Source: an uncultured bacterium
GTDB taxonomy: Bacteria; Fidelibacterota; UBA2242; JAFGTP01
Assembly (NCBI GenBank): GCA_964438745.1
Contig: CAYTLS010000001.1
Location: 1 to 24,899, forward strand
DNA length: 24,899 bases
Direction: 5' to 3'
Under the pieces are notes generated by a model that saw only the letters and a list, made by a program, of their open reading frames with translations, was not told the DNA's origin and did not search any database. Below are positions 1,016-18,424 of this stretch, piece after piece. The position numbers were made by a program, and so were the translations under genes. Position 1 is the first letter of the stretch, and each line of letters begins with the position of its first letter.

Positions 1016-2362
1016 CTATTTAACGACAAATCGTTGTGCAAATTCTGAATAGTCAATTTTCCCCGCAGTGTAATCAAGCACATCCTGTTTTTTGCATGAG
1101 AGATTTCTTTCTTGCTTTGCACTGGTGTTGTTCAAATTGATCTTAACGCTGATCTTTTCATCCGGCTGAACACTTTTCAGTGTTGCTCCGTAGATCGACA
1201 ATGTTTTTATAATATCTTCCTGGGTTTTATCCATAATAGAATCCAGTTCCGTCGCAGAAAATTCAGAACCGGAAAACGAAATAATATCAGTTTCAATATC
1301 ACCCTCCAGATCACTCTCAACCTGAACATTGATATCGATGTTTTCATTATCATCAGAGGATGCAACAATATGAGAATCTTTGTCAGTTTTATATTTGTAT
1401 TTATGGACGCTGGTTTTATTGTCTTTTTCTTGCTCCTTATCTGCTTTTACTTTGAAGTTTTCCAGTTTCTTTTGAGCCTTTTCCAATTCTTGCTGCACAT
1501 TTTCCATTTTCTTCTGAATTACTTTGGTATTGACCTGGAATGGGAAAAATTCTGTATTTCCGGCAATCGGCACATTAAATACGGCACCAAAGCCTTCAAG
1601 ATAAAAACCAGTGCTCTTGTTGCGCTTGTTCCAGAATTCAGATTTCTTTTCCAGAAAAGTATCAAAAATATTTGTCATCACTTCAATATCCTTTTTCTGA
1701 TTATCACTGGTTGGCGCATTGAAAATTAATTTTTGTTCAAGTTTACTCTCATCCATTTTACCCCGATAAAATCGTTTCAGATCCGCGACAGTGGCCGTCA
1801 TTTGTATCACCGCCGGAATATTGTACTTCCTATCCAGATGACGACTACGGTCTACTTTGAGATTGACCATGATCTTTTCAGACTCTTTCATTTCCAGGGT
1901 GCCGCGAGTATAGTTGAAGAAAAATTCCAACAGGATTTCTTTTACCATCTCCAGTTTCTTGTCAATTTCCGCCTGGGTATCCTGCTTTTTTTGTTCCAGT
2001 TTCTGTTGTTGCTCTTTGATTCTTTTCCGGTCTTCCTCTTCTTGATCACTGAGTTGAATCCTGCCATCTTCATCAATAATAGGAATCGGGGGCAATTCAG
2101 GAATTCTTAATTCCAACTGCTCACCTAAATTAAAGAAACCGGCGCTTTCAACAGTCAACACAATGCCATAATCATCATAATATTCCCCCTGAAATCTGTC
2201 TCCATAGGAGAAAAATATCGGACTGTCTTCCACAATCATCTTATCCAGAATATTTTCCATTATCGCAATATCCTTTTCCATACTCATGGGCATTGCAATT
2301 GCTGTCCGGCCCAATAAAAATGAAAGCGTAACGAAAAGGGTAATTAATTTTATAGTTTTCAT
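1016..2362 (-). CDS. Exported hypothetical protein with an internal two-fold domain duplication, third gene of the ECF operon
   Basis: 448-aa ORF with an N-terminal signal peptide (MKTIKLITLFVTLSFLLGRTAIA) and RBS-like AGGAG upstream. It starts 32 bp after the anti-sigma stop. Repeated motifs KDIAIMENILD / KDIEVMTNIFD. Confidence 0.85.
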   Translation of the reverse strand: MKTIKLITLFVTLSFLLGRTAIAMPMSMEKDIAIMENILDKMIVEDSPIFFSYGDRFQGEYYDDYGIVLTVESAGFFNLGEQLELRIPELPPIPIIDEDGRIQLSDQEEEDRKRIKEQQQKLEQKKQDTQAEIDKKLEMVKEILLEFFFNYTRGTLEMKESEKIMVNLKVDRSRHLDRKYNIPAVIQMTATVADLKRFYRGKMDESKLEQKLIFNAPTSDNQKKDIEVMTNIFDTFLEKKSEFWNKRNKSTGFYLEGFGAVFNVPIAGNTEFFPFQVNTKVIQKKMENVQQELEKAQKKLENFKVKADKEQEKDNKTSVHKYKYKTDKDSHIVASSDDNENIDINVQVESDLEGDIETDIISFSGSEFSATELDSIMDKTQEDIIKTLSIYGATLKSVQPDEKISVKINLNNTSAKQERNLSCKKQDVLDYTAGKIDYSEFAQRFVVK

Positions 2363-2394: not shown

Positions 2395-3057
2395 TTATTT
2401 TGAGCGTCCGGTGTTTAATAAATTTATAATTTCATCGACCGTGTGACTCGTCTGCTGTATTCTTATATCATTGGCTTTGTAAGCATGATTAACAGTACCC
2501 AGCAATTCTTCATATTCGCGGCTGCGTTCCTTGCGCATTTCCGTCAGCAAATTTCTCAGCATGACCACGGTTTGCTTTTCATCCCTGGCTTGGTAGGATT
2601 CCAAAAGTTGGGTGGTGAGTTTATAATTTTCATACTGTATTTTTTCTAACATTTCAGGAGTAAGTTCCTGCTGGGGTGTGGCCGTTTCCCGGGAGGTTAG
2701 CAACGCGGTCTGAAAGGTGAATCCATCATCCGTCACTTCGATTTTTGTATTGAATAAGGCCATGATAAAAAGAATTACGGCAAAGCCCAGCCCAATCTTT
2801 TTAACCCTTCCAAAATCCGGTATTAATTTTTGGAGAATCGCTGCCCATGAACTCTCTTCTTGAGTGAATGTCAATTGTACCGGTACCGGTTCATCTTTCC
2901 ATTGATTGAGAAAGTCAGGAACAGTAACCAACTCTTGATATTTTTTCCGGCATTCGCCACAGTGCTGCAAATGCTCTTCTATTTTTTGTTTGTTATCCGG
3001 ACTGATCTCATCATAGATCATATCCATGATCAATCGTTTATAATCTTTACATTTCAT
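2395..3057 (-). CDS. Zinc-binding anti-sigma factor (ZAS / zf-HC2) with a single TM helix and a coiled-coil C-terminal region
   Basis: N-terminal C-x(26)-HLQHCGEC (HxxxCxxC) motif and TM segment IGLGFAVILFIMALF. Overlaps the sigma stop by 11 bp. Confidence 0.9.
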   Translation of the reverse strand: MKCKDYKRLIMDMIYDEISPDNKQKIEEHLQHCGECRKKYQELVTVPDFLNQWKDEPVPVQLTFTQEESSWAAILQKLIPDFGRVKKIGLGFAVILFIMALFNTKIEVTDDGFTFQTALLTSRETATPQQELTPEMLEKIQYENYKLTTQLLESYQARDEKQTVVMLRNLLTEMRKERSREYEELLGTVNHAYKANDIRIQQTSHTVDEIINLLNTGRSK

Positions 3058-3616
3058 AGCCGAGGTCCTCCTTTCCTATTCCCCATTTCACGATAACTTT
3101 ACGAAGAGCATTCAGTCCGTAATACATACGCGCTTTCACAGTATTGACCGGTTCATTGAGAATAGATGCAATCTCAGTGAACTTCAGGTTATGGTACTGT
3201 TTCATGATAATAACAACACGTTGTTCTCTGGGAATAGTTTGCAATGCTTGTTTTATTATTAAATTTGATGTCTGATCATTGGTTTTGAATTGATGTTCTT
3301 TTCCAGGATTAAATTCCAGGTCATCATTGATTGTTATTTCTGAAAAATTTATTTCCCTTTTCTTGCGGAAATAATTTTTACTCTGATTAATCGCAATAGA
3401 GTAAAGCCAGGATTTAAATTTTTCCCGCTCTTTCAACTTTTTTAATTTTTTATACATCAGGACAAAGGTCTGTTGCATGATATCCCCCGCCACTTCCCGG
3501 TCACCAATATATTTAAGCAGAAAATTAAACAGTTGGCCCTGGTGCTTTCTGACCAGAACATTGAAAGCGGAAATATCGCCTTCTAAATAGTTTGCTATTA
3601 ATTCTTCATTTTTCAT
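3047..3616 (-). CDS. ECF (sigma-70 family group 4) RNA polymerase sigma factor
   Basis: 189 aa; region 2 (GDISAFNVLV..DIMQQTF..FKSWLYSIAIN) and region 4 (QRVVIIMKQYHNLKFTEIASILNEPVNTVKARMYYG). Confidence 0.95.
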   Translation of the reverse strand: MKNEELIANYLEGDISAFNVLVRKHQGQLFNFLLKYIGDREVAGDIMQQTFVLMYKKLKKLKEREKFKSWLYSIAINQSKNYFRKKREINFSEITINDDLEFNPGKEHQFKTNDQTSNLIIKQALQTIPREQRVVIIMKQYHNLKFTEIASILNEPVNTVKARMYYGLNALRKVIVKWGIGKEDLGYEM

Positions 3617-3625
3617 AATTGTCCC

Positions 3626-3653
3626 TTAGACCCACCTTAAGGAAAAAAAGTTT
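3626..3653 (-). promoter_or_regulatory. Putative ECF-dependent autoregulatory promoter AAACTT-N16-GTCTAA
   Basis: Minus strand reads AAACTT (3653-3648), a 16-nt spacer, then GTCTAA (3631-3626), ending 9 nt before the sigma ATG. Matches the general ECF -35 AAC / -10 GTC pattern. Confidence 0.7.
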
Positions 3654-3797
3654 TAAATAAAATTTATTTTTAATGGCAGTGGTATTTTTTTCTAAACACA
3701 ACGAAGAAAGAATATGATAATTTTGCAATTTTGTTGATTAGAAAAAATCTATTCAGAGGTGCAGCCCTATTTAAATAATAGCAATATTAGTAAATAA

Positions 3798-3830
3798 TTT
3801 GAACTAGTGCATAATATGCACAGATTCAAA
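3798..3830. promoter_or_regulatory. 33-bp imperfect palindrome, candidate transcription-factor operator
   Basis: TTTGAA-cta-GTGCATA-a-TATGCAC-aga-TTCAAA, in the divergent sigma/galE intergenic region. Confidence 0.45.
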
Positions 3831-4061
3831 TCTATTAAAACAACTAGATTAGAGAAAAGTAACAAAATAATCACCATAACTTCCCTCGGTTGCAACATTT
3901 TTAGCGTATTTTGTTTTTTTTGTGGTAGAAGAATCTGTCCAACTGTTCGTATTTTCCGGACAGTTTAATCAGCCCTATCACATTAAACTAAATTTTACAA
4001 AAATATGACAAATAATTTTTGGTAATCCTTAGATTTAATTTTAACTTTTACTCCCCGATTA

Positions 4062-8729: not shown

Positions 8730-10463
8730 CTAGTGTCTGGATATTGGCAAATCAATAATAAATTCCGTGCCCACATTTTTTTCACTTTTGACATCCAGTT
8801 TTCCATTATGTTGCATGACAATATGCTTGACAATGGATAATCCCAGACCGGTGCCTCCCATCTTCCGTGATCTGGACTTATCAACGACATAAAAACGCTC
8901 AAAAATCCGCCCCAGATGTTTCGACGGTATACCAATGCCTGTATCTTTAATAATGATTCTTAATTTATTCTTTATTTTGTGGCTGGAAACGTAAATCCCT
9001 CCCTGATCCGTATACTTGGCAGAATTATCAATCAGGTTGATAAACAACTGCTCCAGTTTAAAGCGGTCGCCATCAATTTCTTTCACCTCAGGATCAAGCG
9101 TTACTGCAAAAGTAAGCTTTTTGGATTGGATTTTCATATCGACAACTTTTTCCACATCATCGATTAATTCTTCCAGATTAACCTTTTCAATATCCAGTTT
9201 AGACTTACGGGATTCAAGATTGGACAGTACCAGCAAATCCTTGACAATATAGATCAAGCGATCAGTATGTTTTTCCAGAATTTCAAAGTAATGCTTTTTC
9301 GTTTCGTCTGTCTCTTCATCCTGCAGCGTTTCTACAAAACCTTTTATTGCTGTCAGTGGGGTGCGCAATTCATGGCTCACATTGGAAACAAAATCCTTTT
9401 TTATCTGCTCCAGTTGCTTCATATCTGTAATATTTTTCAAACTCAGGATAATATCCCCTTTTGATTCAACTTTGGCCAGGGACACGATAAAATCTTTGTT
9501 ATTCCATTTGATAGTTTCCATAGCGACGGTTTCGTTTTTCAGGACTTTTTCAATCACGCGCTTAAAATATTTCCCCTTAAATATTTCCGAATAATTTTTC
9601 CCTACCAGGTCTGTTTCAGTGATTCTGACCATTTCAGGATTTGCCAGGATTATGTTTCCCTGGTTGTTTAATACGCAAATTCCTTCTTTAATGGATTCCA
9701 GCAAGCAATTCAGCGTTTCCTTTTCACTTTCAATACGGTTAAAAAGGCTTTGAATTCTCGACGTCATCTCATTGAAACTATCAGCAAAGGTACGCAGATC
9801 GCCGCGACTATTAATATCAACCCGGGTAGAAAGATTGCCATTGGAAACGCTGAGAGCGGCATTTTTTAATTTTGTGATCGGCGTGGAAAAATTTCGACTC
9901 ATAAAAATAGCTACTATCAGGGCAATAAAAAAAACCAAATAACTGGCTCGCAATAGTTTGGTTCTGAGGTCACTGATAATTTCATTAATATTTTCAAGGA
10001 ACATACTCGTTCGGATGACGCCGATAATTTCATTCTCTTTTTTAAGAGGCTGGGCCACATACAACATTTCTTTTTTTAAGGTACTACTGTAACGGAGGGA
10101 AGATCTGACTTCTTTAGTTTGAAAAGCATAATCGATCTCATCACGATAACGATGGTTTTCCATTTTTTCAGGATTGTGTTCAGAATCGCCCAGCACAACC
10201 CCCATTGTATCGACAACCGTGATTCGAATATTAAGTTTATTTCCCTTTTCTTTCACAAACCGGTCCAGATTGCCGTCCTCGAAATGTTGTACCACCTGAT
10301 CCGATAGCGCCAGATTTACTTTTTTTAATTCTGTTTTTAAAATGTTGATATAATTACTCTTGGTGACCCGAAAAGTAGTAAAAAGAGTCAATATCAGCAG
10401 GAGTAGAATTATAAAGAAAAATGCTGAAAATATTTTTAAAAAGAAGCTGGATATTCTGGTCAT
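8730..10463 (-). CDS. phoR: PhoR-like sensor histidine kinase (TM-periplasmic-TM-HAMP-PAS-HisKA-HATPase)
   Basis: FVSNVSHELRTPLTAIKGFVETL, NLIDNSAKY, DTGIGIP, RIFERFYVVDKSRSRKMGGTGLGLSIVKHIV. Co-oriented with an OmpR-family regulator and a porin. Confidence 0.85.
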   Translation of the reverse strand: MTRISSFFLKIFSAFFFIILLLLILTLFTTFRVTKSNYINILKTELKKVNLALSDQVVQHFEDGNLDRFVKEKGNKLNIRITVVDTMGVVLGDSEHNPEKMENHRYRDEIDYAFQTKEVRSSLRYSSTLKKEMLYVAQPLKKENEIIGVIRTSMFLENINEIISDLRTKLLRASYLVFFIALIVAIFMSRNFSTPITKLKNAALSVSNGNLSTRVDINSRGDLRTFADSFNEMTSRIQSLFNRIESEKETLNCLLESIKEGICVLNNQGNIILANPEMVRITETDLVGKNYSEIFKGKYFKRVIEKVLKNETVAMETIKWNNKDFIVSLAKVESKGDIILSLKNITDMKQLEQIKKDFVSNVSHELRTPLTAIKGFVETLQDEETDETKKHYFEILEKHTDRLIYIVKDLLVLSNLESRKSKLDIEKVNLEELIDDVEKVVDMKIQSKKLTFAVTLDPEVKEIDGDRFKLEQLFINLIDNSAKYTDQGGIYVSSHKIKNKLRIIIKDTGIGIPSKHLGRIFERFYVVDKSRSRKMGGTGLGLSIVKHIVMQHNGKLDVKSEKNVGTEFIIDLPISRH

Positions 10464-10476
10464 AAATTATTCCTGT

Positions 10477-11520
10477 TTATTTAAATTTGTAGGCTAATGT
10501 GAGCCTCGTTATTACATCTTTTCCTCTACCGGGCAGATCCTCCAGATCGTAATCATTGTACAAAATATTGGGCATTATGGAAATATCCCGGCGAATGTTA
10601 TATTCGAAGCCACCAATAAAGGATCGCTGGGTATAATTTCTTTCTTCCTCTACTGTATAATGACTATAACGAAACACAAAACTCACTTTGTCAATATAAT
10701 TATAAATGACTGGAACTGAAATCAGATGAATATCACCTTTTTTTTCAGATCGCATCAATTTATTTTCCTGATAAGTGTATTGAATTCCAAATCTAAATTT
10801 ATCGGATCTGTAACCGGTAAATATTTGACCGGTAAATTCATCATCCACTCCCTCTTTGGAAAGGCGGTAGTCCGTATAAAATTGGTAAAAGAAATGGTTA
10901 GCGAATTCCTGACTCAGACTTAGACTGTAAAGTTTATCGACGCGTCCCCAGCGTTCCGAGGCGTTGGACTCTCCGTTTCCAAAGAAAAAATGATAATTCA
11001 GATGGCTGAAAACTTTTTCTTTAGCTGCGATACCAAAATCCCGGCTGCTGCGAATACCAAAATAGTCCGATGCCGTCTTATCCAAATGACGAAACCCCCA
11101 GAATTTTTCAATTTCCTTGAAGGCCGGGCTACCACTGATCCCAAAATAAGCCGAGTGATCAGGGGTGACCTGCCATTTCAAATAGGCATCCTTGACACTG
11201 GGCGTCATTTTGGAGTAACTGTAATCCGTATTACTCATACTGAATCTCACCCGTGTTGAAAATGCTTCATCAATTTTTTTATCAAAAGTCAGATAAATTC
11301 GGCGAAATTGAAATCCACTGCGCTCATTGGTATACACCTGCCTCAACATTTTTGGTTTGTAATTCGCATGAACATCCTCTTCAGCATCATTGATATAATA
11401 AAAATCGCAGATAGCATTACCTGTAATTTTAATGTGTTCGTTCTCTTCGCCGGCCCATAAATAAGTCAATAATATCCACCCCACAACAACAATTCTTTGA
11501 AACTTCACTTCTTTGTCCAA
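10477..11520 (-). CDS. Outer-membrane beta-barrel porin, probably phosphate-selective (OprO/OprP-like); start may be TTG 11520 or GTG 11508
   Basis: Signal-like N-terminus, alternating aromatic beta-strands, motif FQFRRIYLTF..VKDAYLKW, C-terminal LTLAYKFK. Located between phoB and phoR. Confidence 0.7.
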   Translation of the reverse strand: MDKEVKFQRIVVVGWILLTYLWAGEENEHIKITGNAICDFYYINDAEEDVHANYKPKMLRQVYTNERSGFQFRRIYLTFDKKIDEAFSTRVRFSMSNTDYSYSKMTPSVKDAYLKWQVTPDHSAYFGISGSPAFKEIEKFWGFRHLDKTASDYFGIRSSRDFGIAAKEKVFSHLNYHFFFGNGESNASERWGRVDKLYSLSLSQEFANHFFYQFYTDYRLSKEGVDDEFTGQIFTGYRSDKFRFGIQYTYQENKLMRSEKKGDIHLISVPVIYNYIDKVSFVFRYSHYTVEEERNYTQRSFIGGFEYNIRRDISIMPNILYNDYDLEDLPGRGKDVITRLTLAYKFK

Positions 11521-11551
11521 TCATTTTAAATTAATAACTAAACCCGGCGCA

Positions 11552-11594
11552 ATTATACGAACGGGTAGTTAAAATTAAATTAAAGAATTGTTAA
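11552..11594 (-). promoter_or_regulatory. Pho-box-like array plus -10 element upstream of porin-phoR
   Basis: Minus strand: TTAAC (11594-11590), TTAAT (11583-11579), TTAAC (11572-11568) at an exact 11-bp period, then 10 nt, then a perfect TATAAT (11557-11552). No canonical -35. Confidence 0.75.
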
Positions 11595-11601
11595 GTTTTA
11601 G

Positions 11602-12282
11602 CTAATTTTCAAGAATAAATTTATAACCGACACCTACCACTGTTTTTATATACCCGGCATGACTGCCCATTTTTTTGCGGATCCGGCCAATATGGACATC
11701 AATTGTTCGATCAACCACATAGGTATCTTCCTGCCAGATTCGACTAAGCAGAAAATCCCGCGGAAACACCTTATTGGGATGAGAGGCCAGAAAAGCCAAA
11801 ATTTCAAATTCCTTTCTTGGAAAAAAGAGACTCTCTCCCTGAATTTTTACGGTATAATCGCTTTTATTGATTTCGATATCATAGACTTTGATCTTTTCCT
11901 TTTCCGGTGTTGGCTCTTCGACCCGACGAAAAATTGTTTTCATTCTGGACATCAGGCTTTTCATGCTAAAGGGTTTTTTGATATAATCGTCAGCTCCCAG
12001 TTCCAGCCCCAGTACTTCATCGAATTCTGAATCTTTAGCCGTTAGAAATACGATGGGAACATTGTTATTATTTTTGCGCAGTTCCTTACAAACATCATAA
12101 CCGTCCTTTTCCGGCATCATTACATCCAGCAAAATCATATCGATACTCTCGGTATCAATAATTTTTAAGGCCGCTACACCATCTTCCGCCTCGAGAGCAT
12201 TAAAATTATTCTTTTTCAGATTTAAACTGACTAATTTCCGAATATCTTCTTCGTCATCTACGATTAAAATATTTTTCGTCAT
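11602..12282 (-). CDS. phoB: PhoB/PhoP-like OmpR-family response regulator; start reassigned from 12303 to ATG 12282
   Basis: ILIVDDE, phospho-acceptor LLDVMMP, FLTAK, DDYIKKPF, winged helix (DRTIDVHIGRIRKK..IKTVVGVGYKF). RBS GAAAGGA 5 nt before MTKN. Confidence 0.85.
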   Translation of the reverse strand: MTKNILIVDDEEDIRKLVSLNLKKNNFNALEAEDGVAALKIIDTESIDMILLDVMMPEKDGYDVCKELRKNNNNVPIVFLTAKDSEFDEVLGLELGADDYIKKPFSMKSLMSRMKTIFRRVEEPTPEKEKIKVYDIEINKSDYTVKIQGESLFFPRKEFEILAFLASHPNKVFPRDFLLSRIWQEDTYVVDRTIDVHIGRIRKKMGSHAGYIKTVVGVGYKFILEN

Positions 12283-12353
12283 ATTCATCCTTTCTTGTTT
12301 CATAAATTCATTTTTTTTGCTATACTAAATTAAACTTCAAAGATATGGTTTAG

Positions 12354-14071: not shown

Positions 14072-14101
14072 AAAAAAAGAGCAGCCCATAATGAGCTGCT
14101 C
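14072..14101 (-). terminator. Intrinsic terminator for the 14131-14712 gene
   Basis: Minus strand GAGCAGC-U-CAU-u-AUG-G-GCUGCUC followed by a U-tract; the G-U wobble works only on the minus strand. Confidence 0.85.
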
Positions 14102-14130
14102 CGTGAGTAATCATGTTATTAATTGGTAAG

Positions 14131-14712
14131 TTAGTAAAGTTGAATGACGGCTAACTCATCATTATACCCTGATCCTTCAATTTCTTTTGAAACATCTTTG
14201 ACCTGGTCGTTTAGTTTCATGCCTTCTGCAAACAATGAGGAAGTATTTATTGTAGCATAGACTGTGCTGATAGAGTATGGATGTTCCAGTGTTAATGGTA
14301 GTCTTGCGGCAACAGCAGTTGAAATTCCCTGACGACAAGCATCCGTATTATTGGCAATACTGAAGACACTGTTATTCCGGCAATATTCTGCAACTTCCTT
14401 GACATCGGCACTCTCAGTAACAAGAATTACATCCGGCTTATTGATGGGAAGATCGGTGCTGCATGTGATCTTTATCAGGGTTGCGGCTCCAACTCTTTGG
14501 CCATTGTAAATAACCAGTTCTTCAGCTACATATTGATCACCGATAACATGAACTGTCACTTCATCCCTGGTCTGTAATGTTTCATTCAAAGCAACAAGCG
14601 ACATTGCACCCAATGCAAATCTTTTGTTTGTAAGGCGAAAATCACCTGCAAAAGTCTGTACAGTCAGTGTTAAGACAAGTACTAAAACCAGTGTTAAATT
14701 TAATTTCTTCAT
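14131..14712 (-). CDS. Exported YfiR/HmsC (DUF4154)-like protein, paralog A
   Basis: Signal peptide ending TFA. Pattern VHVIG..VAEEL..RVG..LP..PDVILV..YCRNNSVFSI..G..IN..AEGM resembles DUF4154. RBS GAAAGGGA. Confidence 0.65.
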   Translation of the reverse strand: MKKLNLTLVLVLVLTLTVQTFAGDFRLTNKRFALGAMSLVALNETLQTRDEVTVHVIGDQYVAEELVIYNGQRVGAATLIKITCSTDLPINKPDVILVTESADVKEVAEYCRNNSVFSIANNTDACRQGISTAVAARLPLTLEHPYSISTVYATINTSSLFAEGMKLNDQVKDVSKEIEGSGYNDELAVIQLY

Positions 14713-14754
14713 AACAATTCCCTTTCGTTTATCTTATTAATTTATTTACAGACT

Positions 14755-14785
14755 TGAGACTTACAACCTGATTAAAAGTTGTCAA
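14755..14785 (-). promoter_or_regulatory. Putative ECF promoter for paralog A (TGACAACTTTTA; CAACTT-N15-GTCTCA)
   Basis: The block is conserved upstream of paralog B and resembles the promoter upstream of the ECF sigma gene. Confidence 0.55.
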
Positions 14786-14837
14786 AAAACTTTTATTTTT
14801 TTTAATTTTTTTTCGGTTTAATAAATTGTTTATAAAC

Positions 14838-14868
14838 AAAAAAGCAACCTTATAAAAGATTGCTTTTT
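14838..14868. terminator. Intrinsic terminator between the two paralogs
   Basis: AAAAAGCAA-c-CTT..AAG-a-TTGCTTTTT, with A/T runs on both sides. Confidence 0.75.
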
Positions 14869-14896
14869 AATTTTTATGCCTTCTCTTTTTGAGCCT

Positions 14897-14919
14897 AAAC
14901 AACTGCCAAACTTACCAAA
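14897..14919. repeat. 23-bp exact intergenic repeat, copy 1 (AAACAACTGCCAAACTTACCAAA)
   Basis: Identical to 15865-15887. Confidence 0.95.
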
Positions 14920-14980
14920 TAAAACATATTATTTATACTCATTGGAAAAGGAATCAAATTTTCAAAAATATAATTAAAGA

Positions 14981-15562
14981 CTAATAAAGTTGAACCATTA
15001 CAAGATCTTTTTCAAACTTGTTTTCTTCAACCGGTTTAGCAATATCCATTACCTGGGGATTGAAAACCATACCTTCAGCAAACAAGGCTTCTTTATTAAT
15101 TTTGGCAAAAACAGCGGTCATTGAATATTTATTTTCATTTGGTGCTGTTTTTCGGGTTACGATCGCAGAGGAAAGTCCTTTTTGGCATAACTCAGAAACA
15201 TTGGTCACACTGAAAACTTTATTATCGCGACAATACCGAATAGCTTGTTTACATTTGGCTTCATCACAAACCAAAAGGACATCCGGATTTTCACTCGGCA
15301 GTTCATCACCAGCAGTGATGGAATTCAATTTAATAAATCCAACTCTTTGGTCAAGAAATATTTTCAACTCTTCAGCAACATCGACATTGCCTAATACAAA
15401 AACATCCAGTGATTCTTTTCCCTGAAGTGTTTCATTTAAAGCACATAATGACATAGCCCCAAGTGCAAATCTTTCATTGGTAATTTTAGGGCTAATTGCA
15501 AAGACCTGAGTACTTAAAACCAGTATCAGTGTCATTCCGAACAAAACATTCAATATCTTCAT
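14981..15562 (-). CDS. Exported YfiR/HmsC (DUF4154)-like protein, paralog B
   Basis: 193 aa, aligns without gaps to paralog A (89/193 identical by manual count). Signal peptide ending VFA. Confidence 0.65.
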   Translation of the reverse strand: MKILNVLFGMTLILVLSTQVFAISPKITNERFALGAMSLCALNETLQGKESLDVFVLGNVDVAEELKIFLDQRVGFIKLNSITAGDELPSENPDVLLVCDEAKCKQAIRYCRDNKVFSVTNVSELCQKGLSSAIVTRKTAPNENKYSMTAVFAKINKEALFAEGMVFNPQVMDIAKPVEENKFEKDLVMVQLY

Positions 15563-15599
15563 TTTTAATGCCTTTCCTTTATTTCAATAAATACAGGCT

Positions 15600-15630
15600 T
15601 ACGACTTATCATGATTTGTAAAAGTTGTCA
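15600..15630 (-). promoter_or_regulatory. Putative ECF promoter for paralog B (TGACAACTTTTA; CAACTT-N16-GTCGTA)
   Basis: Shares the 12-mer TGACAACTTTTA and TAAGTC..AAG.CTGTA with the paralog A upstream region. Confidence 0.6.
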
Positions 15631-15864
15631 TCAAAAGTAAATTTTTTATACTTTATTAATCCGCTTATTAAATTGTAAAAAATCATAATTGATGTCACAC
15701 CTTATACTTAACAATAACACAACAGCATTAAAACTTAAAAGGAATAAAAACAGTAATAAGGTAATAAATAAATAGAATGGGGAATCAACGTTCAAATAAA
15801 TAGCCGGAAAGTGGAATTGTTTTTTGATTTTAGATTAATTTTAATTATTTTAATACTGAGTCCC

Positions 15865-15887
15865 AAACAACTGCCAAACTTACCAAA
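15865..15887. repeat. 23-bp exact intergenic repeat, copy 2
   Basis: Identical to 14897-14919; 968 bp apart. Confidence 0.95.
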
Positions 15888-15950: not shown

Positions 15951-16928
15951 TTAAAATTTATCAACTGAATAGTCTTCATGACTGATCCAGATCACGACGT
16001 GATACCGGCCATTATTTTGGCTCAATCCTACCTGGATACTTTTCTTATCAATCTTCCATTCCGCTGTCCATTCGATAAATTCTTCTTCTAATTCTGATTT
16101 TTCAATAAATTTTGTATCTGTTAACCCATGCAATCGGTTATAATAATCAATAATATTTTCCCAGTTTTCTTTAAGTTCCGAGTTGTATTGTGTGCCCAAA
16201 TAACCGTTACTAACCAGGTTGATCAAGTATAACTTATCATTTTTGTAGACCGGTTTGAGATTATATTTATAGTCACCCAAATTCACTTTATAAATGGGGT
16301 TGTTGATCATTAATTCTTCGACTTTGATCCGTGGATCCTCTTCAAATTTTAAATTTGCTTCTTCTATAGTATCGCCAAAATTGATAAATCCAAAAGCCTT
16401 TTGCGCCAGTTTTTTATCCTTGGTTTGTTTTTTTTCCCGTTCTTTTTCCGCCTTTTTTTCTGCTGCCCGTTTAATATCTTTTTTCATGATCTGTTCGCGC
16501 AATTCAGAATAATTATCTATAATCTCACCATTTTTGAAAATAAGAACCGGTCCATTATCCTCAATATCAGCAATATAAAATTTGATTCCATAGGTTTTTA
16601 AGGGAAATAGCATAAGCGATAGTGTATCAGTCGTGGCTGTATATTCGGCCACAAAATCATTGAATAATTTTCGTGTGTCTTTGGGATTATAAACAGCCTG
16701 CCGGTTCAGTTTTACACTGATACTGCGATTAAATTTGTAGGGAAGACGATCCAGATTTGAATTATCATAAAGATAAGATTTTTCCAAAACGGATTCCCAT
16801 TTTGGTAATACTTCGTCAGCAAAATGCTCATCGACATATTTTTTGTAAAATGAACTTTGATAAAAAACAAAGGCCAATGCGCTTAAGACTAATATAGATA
16901 TCAAAATAAATTTGAATAAGGTTTTCAA
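15951..16928 (-). CDS. Membrane-anchored hypothetical protein (about 325 aa); start reassigned from 17123 to TTG 16928
   Basis: Strong RBS GAGGAG 8 nt before an in-frame TTG. The new start gives MKTLFKFILISILVLSALAFVFY (signal/anchor) and removes a 190-bp same-strand overlap with the upstream gene. Confidence 0.75.
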   Translation of the reverse strand: MKTLFKFILISILVLSALAFVFYQSSFYKKYVDEHFADEVLPKWESVLEKSYLYDNSNLDRLPYKFNRSISVKLNRQAVYNPKDTRKLFNDFVAEYTATTDTLSLMLFPLKTYGIKFYIADIEDNGPVLIFKNGEIIDNYSELREQIMKKDIKRAAEKKAEKEREKKQTKDKKLAQKAFGFINFGDTIEEANLKFEEDPRIKVEELMINNPIYKVNLGDYKYNLKPVYKNDKLYLINLVSNGYLGTQYNSELKENWENIIDYYNRLHGLTDTKFIEKSELEEEFIEWTAEWKIDKKSIQVGLSQNNGRYHVVIWISHEDYSVDKF

Positions 16929-16932
16929 AATA

Positions 16933-17460
16933 TTAACTCCTCTTTCTGTTAAAAAATCCAAGAATAATTCCCAACATAACTGACCATAGAGCAGCCAGAC
17001 CGATTTGATAATTTTTCGGTAAAGAAAAAGTAATCGTATGCGCCGGTATCCAGAACCAAAGCAAAGAATATAACCCTTTATCGATATTGTCCCAGTTTTT
17101 ATTTTTCTTGAATAAATTATCAAGCACCCGGTGAAAAATCACAAGAAATAAACCAAATTGTAAATTCATGGAAACTGAAAGAGCAAAACTTCTCATCAAT
17201 CCGGTCATTGGTGGTAAATATTGATGTGCAATTAAGTGATCAATAAATCCCTGGTATCCGGCAAAAGCATATTTGATCAGAATAGCCAGGATTCCCCACT
17301 CCGTCATTTTCCAGAGCATTTCCAGACCGGAAAAAGGATTATCGATTTTTCGTCCTACAATCCACCGAGAGATATATTCTCCCAGAGTTCCCAAAATAGC
17401 AAATTGTATAATCGCAGCCAAGATTCCATGGGTCTTTACAAATGTCAGGTACCATTCCAT
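16933..17460 (-). CDS. Mpv17/PMP22 family membrane protein
   Basis: About 4 TM helices. C-terminal LLWFWIPAHTITFSLP..QIGLAALWSVMLGIIL matches the Mpv17 W.P.Q/H..NF..P pattern. RBS AAGGA. Confidence 0.75.
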   Translation of the reverse strand: MEWYLTFVKTHGILAAIIQFAILGTLGEYISRWIVGRKIDNPFSGLEMLWKMTEWGILAILIKYAFAGYQGFIDHLIAHQYLPPMTGLMRSFALSVSMNLQFGLFLVIFHRVLDNLFKKNKNWDNIDKGLYSLLWFWIPAHTITFSLPKNYQIGLAALWSVMLGIILGFFNRKRS

Positions 17461-17769: not shown

Positions 17770-18213
17770 ATGAGTACACATTGGCAGAAAATTGAAGCGG
17801 GAGTATTGAAACACAGTAGTGTTCATCATCTCATGGCAGTGCATCAATTATTGGATGAGCAGGGCTATGCCCGCACAACAGATATATCCAAAAAATTAAA
17901 TATTACAAGGGGTAGTGTCTCTATTACATTGAGCCGTCTTGAAGAAAATAATTATATAAAATTCGATGCCAATAAACATATCAGCCTGTCCCAAAAAGGG
18001 CAAAAGATTGTTGATGATGTCCTTCAAAAGCGAAAAATTCTATCTGAATTTTTAATGGAATCTTTGCAAATGGAAAAAAATGAGGCCGTAAATTGTGCTT
18101 GCCGAATGGAACATGTCATATCCCAGGAAGTGTTGAGAAGGCTGGAAATTTTCAATGACTTCTGCCGGGAAAATGTCTCCTCTTTACCGGAATTCAAACA
18201 AATACCCCTTTAG
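17770..18213 (+). CDS. DtxR/MntR family metal-dependent transcriptional regulator (no FeoA domain)
   Basis: wHTH GYARTTDISKKLNITRGSVSITLSRL, ISLSQKG, dimerisation motif ACRMEH; 147 aa. Confidence 0.9.
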   Translation: MSTHWQKIEAGVLKHSSVHHLMAVHQLLDEQGYARTTDISKKLNITRGSVSITLSRLEENNYIKFDANKHISLSQKGQKIVDDVLQKRKILSEFLMESLQMEKNEAVNCACRMEHVISQEVLRRLEIFNDFCRENVSSLPEFKQIPL

Positions 18214-18260
18214 AATTTGCTGTCATACTTTCCTGTAATATTAAAAAAAATGACAATGGG

Positions 18261-18291
18261 ACAAGGGATTGCAGTTCCTTGTTAACTTTTT
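18261..18291 (+). terminator. Probable terminator for the DtxR/MntR gene
   Basis: ACAAGGGA / TTCCTTGT stem (one G-U on the plus strand), 6-nt loop, followed by taacTTTTT. Confidence 0.5.
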
Positions 18292-18424
18292 ACTAATCAG
18301 GTATCCTGCTCCTGGAAAAAATAATTCCCATTATCCGGTTTCGTAGATAATCTGCGTTATATGTTCCCGACAATTATGAGAATTGTCCACAACAGGACAA
18401 CTGAACCTGTCAGGGAAGGTAAGT

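Follow-up and report, generated by a model that had tools for sequence, protein, structure and literature searches.

An ECF σ factor operon predicted to be autoregulated, and probable ECF-type promoters of a separate class before YfiR/HmsC-like genes in an uncultured Fidelibacterota bacterium

The stretch of DNA analysed here (the window: 24,899 nt, positions 1 to 24,899 of the forward strand of contig CAYTLS010000001.1, assembly GCA_964438745.1, from an uncultured bacterium of the Fidelibacterota) carries on its minus strand an operon for an extracytoplasmic function (ECF) σ factor and, about 11 kb away, two paralogous genes for small YfiR/HmsC-like proteins. An earlier note on this DNA had proposed that the σ operon controls both paralogs, as the promoter motif of the σ gene recurs upstream of each. 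Our comparisons suggest that both elements are ECF-type promoters, but they do not support the σ factor of the window as the reader of the paralog promoters: the latter differ from the promoters of the σ group at systematic positions, score low against them, and are kept in genomes that have lost the σ gene. We assign a probability of roughly 45% to the reading that a different or an additional ECF σ factor reads the paralog promoters.

The σ gene (3047..3616, minus strand) encodes a 189-aa protein that contains the σ2 and σ4 domains only (Sigma70_r2, 57 bits; Sigma70_r4_2, 42 bits; TIGR02937, 87 bits vs. a cutoff of 42.9), as do ECF (group 4) σ factors, proteins of ~200 aa. The gene that follows (2395..3057, minus strand) overlaps the σ gene by 11 nt and encodes a 220-aa anti-σ factor of the zinc-binding (ZAS) type, with an N-terminal zf-HC2 domain (PF13490, 34.4 bits), the motif H29-x3-C33-x2-C36 and one transmembrane segment; the order of the two genes is kept in orthologous loci, as for a co-transcribed anti-σ factor. 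The third gene of the operon (1016..2362, minus strand), also kept 3′ of the anti-σ gene in orthologous loci, encodes a secreted 448-aa protein that matches no family and has a weak internal repeat (E = 0.019). Paralog A (14131..14712, minus strand) and paralog B (14981..15562, minus strand) each encode 193 aa, A with a signal peptide and the invariant residues Cys111 and Cys126; the two proteins are 46% identical, the value that the earlier note had estimated. An intrinsic terminator lies behind each paralog (14078..14102 behind A and 14839..14868 behind B, both on the minus strand), the stem of the latter showing compensatory changes across genomes. Since each paralog has a promoter block as well as a terminator of its own, each probably forms a monocistronic unit.

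The autoregulatory promoter of the σ operon lies at 3626..3657 (minus strand), with a −35 element TTTAAAACTTTTTTT and a −10 element GTCTAA (3631-3626). From the end of the −10 element to the ATG (3616) the distance is 9 nt, which implies a leaderless mRNA or one with a 3-nt leader; transcription is expected to start near 3619. Among five orthologous loci, conservation upstream is confined to TTTAAAAC(T)n ... GTCTAAGG; all five σ orthologs keep the −10 box GTCTAA, the spacer is variable, and the flanks are fully diverged. We extended the comparison to 80 loci with members of this ECF group, taken from species-representative genomes of Marinimicrobia, KSB1, Latescibacterota, Calditrichota and other lineages: AAC-N16-18-GTC occurs within 90 nt upstream in 71 of the 80 members, with the consensus tTAAAACTTTt ... 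(c/a)GTCT(a/t)A (TAAAAC-N18-GTCTAA). Across 66 group sites, the three bases preceding AAC are T (48/66), A (63/66) and A (58/66), the base after GTC is T (59/66), and AAC and GTC are separated by 18 nt in 61 sites and by 17 nt in 5. Upstream-conserved motifs of this kind, which follow from the autoregulation of ECF σ factors, have been used to predict group-specific promoters (PMC7826278; PMC7776599). The group-wide conservation and the footprint among the five orthologs bear out the earlier proposal and support well the view that the motif is a genuine ECF promoter through which the σ gene is autoregulated. In the Marinimicrobia members (L020-L036, the L-numbers denoting fetched related loci, and others), the start codon follows GTC after 8-13 nt, and their σ mRNAs are predicted to be leaderless or to have a leader of 0-3 nt; in the KSB1 and Latescibacterota members, GTC lies 31-63 nt before the start codon, which corresponds to leaders of ~30-60 nt.

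The candidate promoter of paralog B lies at 15603..15629 (minus strand) and consists of a −35 element GACAAC (15629-15624), an 18-nt gap after AAC and a −10 element GTC (15605-15603); the ATG follows 40 nt past GTC, and the transcription start site (TSS) is predicted near 15593-15594. That of paralog A lies at 14758..14783 (minus strand), with GACAAC at 14783-14778, a 17-nt gap and GTC at 14760-14758; here the ATG follows after 45 nt, and the predicted TSS is near 14748-14749. At 90% identity the paralog family forms just 12 clusters, and where a source is named, in a few cases, it is Marinimicrobia or Fidelibacterota. We compared the window with paralog loci of distinct lineages (L001, L004, L005, L016, L019, L100 and L102/L103), and a scan of metagenomes for paralog loci returned only three. 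Each of the 18 copies examined, from 9 loci, has an invariant GACAAC, a gap of 17 or 18 nt after AAC and then (G/A)TC, at a distance of 37-52 nt from the ATG. The −10 element is GTC in 16 copies and ATC in two, the A-orthologs of L001 and L005 having ATC. Both boxes are kept in all B-type orthologs, and the spacer sequences differ among orthologs and paralogs. Past GTC, most copies continue with n-TA-(G/A) and then a TGTAA(A/T)TAAT box. The distance between GTC and the ATG agrees with the position of ECF promoters, for which 5′ untranslated regions (UTRs) of ~20-40 nt are typical (PMC7776599).

The block appears to have been duplicated along with the genes: YfiR-like tandem copies number 2-4 per locus, with three in L016 (1222-3582) and four in L100 (2348-5582), and every tandem copy in these two loci has a GACAAC...GTC promoter of its own. 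The pattern is also specific. In 670 kb of fetched DNA, GACAAC-N17/18-GTC has 36 matches, 29 of them before YfiR-like genes and 7 scattered, where about 6 would be expected from base composition by our own arithmetic; none lies upstream of any σ gene in this DNA. Two invariant boxes at ECF spacing, with a free spacer and a leader of normal length, are best read as an ECF-type promoter, and we consider this reading probable. The earlier claim that the block before both YfiR-like genes is under selection holds good for a bipartite AAC/GTC promoter, which is conserved in every copy examined. A third conserved box lies at or just past the predicted TSS of paralog A (TGTAAATAA, 14742..14750, minus strand) and has a counterpart in paralog B (TGTATTTAT, 15587-15595, minus strand); judging from its position, it may mark the start of the 5′ UTR or be an operator.

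Some features are particular to single types or loci. The spacer of the B-type promoter (15606-15623 in the window), ACAAAT.ATGATAAG, is conserved among B orthologs, unlike the A-type spacers, and includes a near-palindrome, ATCATGAT, which could serve as an extra operator. The gene of L100 listed with 217 aa (3210-3863) is a 193-aa paralog, whose promoter is located inside the mis-called N-terminal extension.

An alternative is that the block is not an ECF promoter, being instead the TTGACA −35 element of a housekeeping σ factor with a weak −10 element, or an operator of a transcription factor (e.g. of the MntR type) with the promoter elsewhere. TTGACA is indeed present before paralog A (14785-14780), as the earlier note had pointed out; a regulator of the MntR/DtxR family is conserved in the cluster; and both the extra conserved box past GTC, TGTAAATAAT, and an invariant upstream element, D2 (described below), indicate selection beyond that on a simple two-box promoter. 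However, only GACA of this hexamer is invariant, with the variants ATGACA, GTGACA, TCGACA, CAGACA and TAGACA among the copies; reading by eye, we found no TAnnnT −10 element at 16-18 nt downstream, just nAGTCn; and a consensus scan of the coding strand for σ70 promoters gave no site at the block, for which reason we rejected a σ70 promoter. The AAC that follows and the GTC at a fixed spacing are the very positions expected to be invariant in an ECF promoter, and genes in these genomes show no upstream enrichment of the Bacteroidetes-type motif TAnnTTTG. We consider it unlikely that the block is something other than an ECF promoter.

The recurrence from which the regulon was proposed is real. 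AACTTTT-N12-16-GTC has exactly three matches in the window, all on the minus (coding) strand and located before the σ gene (3629-3652), paralog A (14758-14780) and paralog B (15603-15626). The spacing between AAC and GTC is 18 nt at the σ site, 17 nt for paralog A and 18 nt for paralog B; the spacers of 16, 15 and 16 nt given before are correct relative to one another, their absolute values depending on how the boxes are delimited. The strings reported as common to A and B, TGACAACTTTTA and TAAGTC..AAG.CTGTA, are present too. Paralogs A and B derive from a common ancestor, however, and so probably do their sites from one ancestral promoter, which leaves effectively two independent instances rather than three. 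The expected number of matches is 0.44, and at least three occur in 2 of 100 dinucleotide shuffles; as the pattern was defined post hoc and the promoters of A and B share ancestry, this statistic is weak on its own.

These same points, namely a pattern of only ~10 specified bases set after the three sites had been seen, the result of the shuffles, and the mutual dependence of A and B, are what could be said for a chance match between short AT-rich words. Against such an origin, both elements are phylogenetically footprinted and the matching bases fall within the conserved boxes, and a matrix built independently of the paralogs places their sites at the top of several loci; a chance resemblance between the σ promoter and the paralog block therefore seems highly improbable. 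The proximity of the σ operon to the paralogs (11-12 kb), a part of the original proposal, holds in the window, but no such linkage appears in the relatives examined: L001, L004 and L005 have no σ gene within 10 kb of the paralogs, and none of the relatives examined has a YfiR-like gene within 4 kb of the σ gene.

To compare the two promoter classes we used a position matrix of 66 unique sites upstream of σ genes from other genomes, which contains no paralog sites. In a scan of ~50,000 window positions, the σ promoter ranks first (27.4 bits), paralog B second (10.6 bits) and paralog A sixth (6.8 bits). Autoregulatory sites, scored by leaving each one out in turn, have a median of 24.8 bits and a 10th percentile of 18.1 bits, whereas the paralog sites have 5-19 bits. 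ECF σ factors have been reported to require near-consensus promoters (PMC7776599), and the paralog sites are not near the consensus of the σ factor of the window. The classes differ systematically at three positions, −3 and −1 relative to AAC and +3 after GTC: every paralog copy has G-A-C immediately before AAC vs. the T/A/A preferred in the σ group, and GTC is followed in the paralogs by a variable base and then TA vs. the T that predominates in the σ group. As GAC is invariant across paralogs that are only 46% identical, those bases are probably read specifically, and the paralog promoters (GACAAC ... GTC-n-TA) appear to form an invariant class of their own, distinct from the TAAAAC ... GTCTAA of the σ group. 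Moreover, the bacterial average has been put at ~10 ECF σ factors per genome (PMC7826278), which gives any single σ factor a low prior as the reader.

A natural deletion of the σ operon bears on the same question. In the genomes GCA_964498725.1 and GCA_046542955.1, the deleted parts comprise σ residues 44-189, the N-terminus of the anti-σ factor and most of the 448-aa gene; the syntenic loci (L013/L014, 3947-4882) instead encode a 137-aa in-frame fusion of σ residues 1-43 with the C-terminal ~94 residues of the anti-σ factor. Both genomes keep both paralogs, both promoters and both copies of D2. The ratio of nonsynonymous to synonymous substitution rates (dN/dS) of the paralogs is 0.08-0.10 at a dS of ~0.29 when the deletion lineage is compared with the 90.5%-identical L001, equal to the values obtained against the window. 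Retention of the paralogs in this lineage argues, not decisively, against their sole dependence on the σ factor of the window.

Some details of the deletion loci are recorded here for completeness. The fusion is joined at a short stretch of similarity (DRE.A). Most of the 448-aa gene is lost through a second deletion, and a RhuM-family gene is inserted beside the locus. The σ promoter is kept in this lineage, with a T-run that is one base shorter.

Several observations weigh against a different or additional reader. The operon remnants of the deletion lineage retain 81-93% identity with the window; the loss may thus be a recent one, which makes the persistence of the paralogs weak evidence. 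By the matrix of the σ group, the paralog promoters take first or second place in L001, L004, L005, L016 and L019, at 12-17 bits, and such ranks are compatible with the general specificity of this ECF group. Close relatives in the group with almost the same σ4 recognition helix, L049 and L063 on the one hand and L071 on the other, have C or A right before AAC, and GTCAT, in their own promoters, which indicates that the group can tolerate variants of the paralog type. Finally, a second ECF σ factor with a GACAAC promoter was not found in the fetched DNA, which consists of loci and not of whole genomes.

It is on such grounds that the σ factor of the window, freed from its ZAS anti-σ factor, might directly transcribe both YfiR-like genes as weaker, sub-consensus targets. 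The core AACTTTT ... GTC is common to both classes at the 17/18-nt spacing of the group; apart from the σ promoter itself, nothing in the window or in most related loci matches the matrix better than the paralog sites; several paralog copies have the exact −10 element of the group, GTCTTA; and C before AAC is tolerated by group members without a change of the recognition helix. In addition, an orthologous σ factor is present or recently lost in every paralog genome that could be evaluated (the window, GCA_016934035.1, and GCA_964498725.1 with its remnant). However, GAC before AAC is invariant across deep divergence in the face of the strong preference of the group for TAA, the scores fall below the median of autoregulatory sites, and where the σ gene is deleted the paralogs persist with their promoters under purifying selection. 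The co-occurrence of σ gene and paralogs is confounded by common ancestry in one small clade, and AAC and GTC at 17/18-nt spacing are common to many ECF groups. We regard direct transcription of the paralogs by this σ factor as possible but rather doubtful. The caveat attached to the earlier proposal, that a different ECF σ factor could be the true reader, is in our judgement at least as likely as the proposal itself.

We thus favor a model in which the reader of the paralog promoters would be an ECF σ factor that prefers the −35 element GACAAC and is other than, or additional to, the σ factor of the window. Each YfiR/HmsC-like gene would be its own transcription unit ending at an intrinsic terminator, driven by a family-specific ECF-type promoter (GACAAC-N17/18-GTC-n-TA) with a 5′ UTR of ~30-45 nt. 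This promoter would have been carried along with the gene through repeated tandem duplication, giving 2-4 copies per genome. The operon of the window's σ factor, its ZAS anti-σ factor and the 448-aa protein would be a separate autoregulated module, with the promoter TAAAAC-N18-GTCTAA and an essentially leaderless mRNA.

The label "YfiR-like" for the paralogs requires some qualification. Paralog A matches PF13689 (DUF4154) at 15.7 bits, under the Pfam gathering score of 24.9, and all 16 family members match it weakly (best E = 1.7e-6). An exhaustive profile search from the paralog family reaches 152 proteins, of which 7 of 10 in a first sample and 15 of 15 in a second set match PF13689 at E <= 0.001. 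The 15 proteins are reached at E of 1e-10 to 1e-18, and comparison of the family with them by hhalign gives a probability of 99.8% (E = 2e-30, 168 columns). Profile-profile comparison thus establishes the homology, albeit below the Pfam cutoff, and the assignment of the paralogs as remote members of the YfiR/HmsC family is solid at this level of sequence analysis. Inspection of the N-terminus, where MKKLN, a hydrophobic stretch and (F/Y)A are conserved in the family, indicates that the proteins are secreted. An AlphaFold2 model of a paralog had a mean pLDDT of 50, too poor for a fold search, and a profile search of PDB sequences with the family returned nothing (best E = 0.53).

Coupling to cyclic diguanylate (c-di-GMP) or to kinase control, which the earlier note had envisaged, finds no local support and is suggested by analogy only: no gene for a GGDEF, EAL or OmpA-like/YfiB-like protein is present among the scanned open reading frames (ORFs) of the window or the Pfam-annotated genes of the related loci examined. 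Genes conserved beside the paralogs encode a membrane-anchored protein of 325 aa and, in many loci, also an MntR-like regulator and a membrane protein of 175 aa; several relatives have a TonB-dependent receptor there as well.

The intergenic DNA around the paralogs, described before as otherwise dissimilar, contains a 26-nt block that is 96% identical between 14894-14919 and 15862-15887 and that the earlier note had missed. This element, D2, has an invariant 17-nt core, TTTGGTAAGTTTGGCAG, in which TTTGG is repeated at 9- and 11-nt intervals. Copy 1 (TTTGGTAAGTTTGGCAGTTGTTTGGG, 15862..15887, minus strand) directly follows the terminator of the 325-aa gene and precedes the promoter of paralog B by ~235 nt, and copy 2 (TTTGGTAAGTTTGGCAGTTGTTTAGG, 14894..14919, minus strand) lies between the stop codon of paralog B and its terminator. 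D2 occurs twice per locus at these places, past the terminator of the 325-aa gene and between the stop codon and the terminator of the first paralog, in the window, L001, L004, L005, L016, L100, L102 and L103, with three D2-like copies in L004 and L016; it is not present in L019. Elsewhere in 653 kb we found none, apart from one near-match with two mismatches in a coding region of L084, on the opposite strand. A shorter version, GTAAGTTTGGCA, occurs in the 5′ UTR of the B-type gene of L004 and L016.

We considered and rejected three identities for D2. A Bacteroidetes-type −7 promoter (TAAGTTTG) is not supported, as TAnnTTTG shows no enrichment in the window (41 occurrences vs. 32.7 expected) or upstream of 89 long ORFs in these genomes, where the reverse-complement control is commoner. 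Read by eye, D2 does not fit a σ54 promoter, GG and GC being 8 nt apart instead of 10 and the −12 element absent. For a structured RNA, Rfam gave nothing at gathering scores, only chance-level matches (E ~0.4-0.5), and RNAalifold folds the downstream terminator only; an RNA carrying D2 is predicted to be unstructured.

Next to D2, the sequence right after the B-type stop codon (14928-14980 in the window), TTGA.TCCTTT...GAGTATAAATAA, is conserved even where D2 is lacking (L019 and L100, 3864-3960). It has the look of a TATAAAT −10 box, situated ~15-20 nt before D2, and a short transcript from this box to the terminator is a possibility.

Upstream of the paralogs, the conserved membrane-anchored 325-aa protein is encoded at 15951..16928 (minus strand), and its gene also stands before the YfiR-like genes in the remaining paralog loci with sufficient upstream sequence. 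The window lists it as a 390-aa ORF (15951-17123) with a TTG start that overlaps the preceding gene; since the orthologs have 325-328 aa, the true start is probably internal, near 16928. The gene of the MntR/DtxR-family regulator (17770..18213, plus strand) is oriented divergently from the cluster, both in the window and in the majority of the related loci that reach this region. Near it, relatives have a gene for a TonB-dependent receptor (L001, 3825-6104; L005, 4677-6956; L004, 3840-6143), which in L001 and L005 stands beside SBP_bac_3; there is no such gene at the equivalent place of the window (18214-18424). Between the σ operon and the paralogs, positions 8730-12303 contain what looks like a separate two-component system of the Pho type, with genes for a Cache-HAMP-PAS-HisKA sensor kinase, an OmpR-family response regulator and an outer-membrane protein that is phosphate-porin-like.

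The components described here are ordinary in themselves, namely an ECF operon with autoregulation and a small family of secreted proteins whose genes have ECF-type promoters, each a member of a known system; the regulon link between them is unproven and is best treated as a hypothesis. In a full-text literature search, YfiR and ECF σ factors appear together in only two papers, neither of which has them as its subject. If an ECF σ factor does drive the YfiR-like genes, this would be a documented case of ECF signalling into YfiR/HmsC-type periplasmic proteins and would open a functional approach to an uncultured lineage of marine and sediment habitats. A more far-reaching scheme can be conceived, in which the autoregulated, leaderless ECF σ factor of a widespread group (Marinimicrobia, KSB1, Latescibacterota) would directly drive an amplified YfiR/HmsC-like family that lacks a diguanylate cyclase partner, with a second layer of control through the D2 core as an operator or RNA-level site, and which would make up a new output module of envelope signalling; we consider this scheme improbable. 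Whichever σ factor is the reader, our work provides precise, testable promoter definitions for both motif classes, and a natural σ-deletion lineage that could settle the question from metatranscriptomes alone.

The σ operon resembles E. coli rpoE-rseABC and B. subtilis sigW-rsiW in its two-domain σ factor (σ2 and σ4), in the overlapping downstream anti-σ gene, and in a bipartite promoter of its own, with AAC in the −35 element and GTC in the −10 element, that is conserved group-wide. It differs from them in several respects: the σ factor of the window reaches no equivalog model (best PRK12513, 142 bits vs. a cutoff of 206); its group spans Marinimicrobia, KSB1, Latescibacterota and Calditrichota; the −10 element of the Marinimicrobia members lies 8-13 nt before the start codon, implying a leaderless mRNA; and the conserved third gene of the operon matches no known family. 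The anti-σ factor shares the N-terminal zf-HC2 domain and the H-x3-C-x2-C motif (H29/C33/C36) with the ZAS anti-σ factors RsrA, ChrR and RslA, but unlike them it is membrane-anchored and has an extracytoplasmic C-terminal part of ~110 aa of unassigned fold. As for the paralogs, YfiR has been described as a periplasmic repressor of the diguanylate cyclase YfiN, sequestered by YfiB (PMC4655355, PMC4887326). Like YfiR of Pseudomonas aeruginosa YfiBNR and HmsC of Yersinia HmsCDE, the window paralogs are small and secreted, with profile homology to PF13689 and two invariant cysteines. Unlike the genes of those systems, they have no YfiN/HmsD-type GGDEF protein and no YfiB/HmsE-type lipoprotein nearby in the loci examined; and, in contrast to YfiR and HmsC, the proteins score under the Pfam cutoff and their genes have been amplified into tandem arrays of 2-4 copies with a promoter before each.

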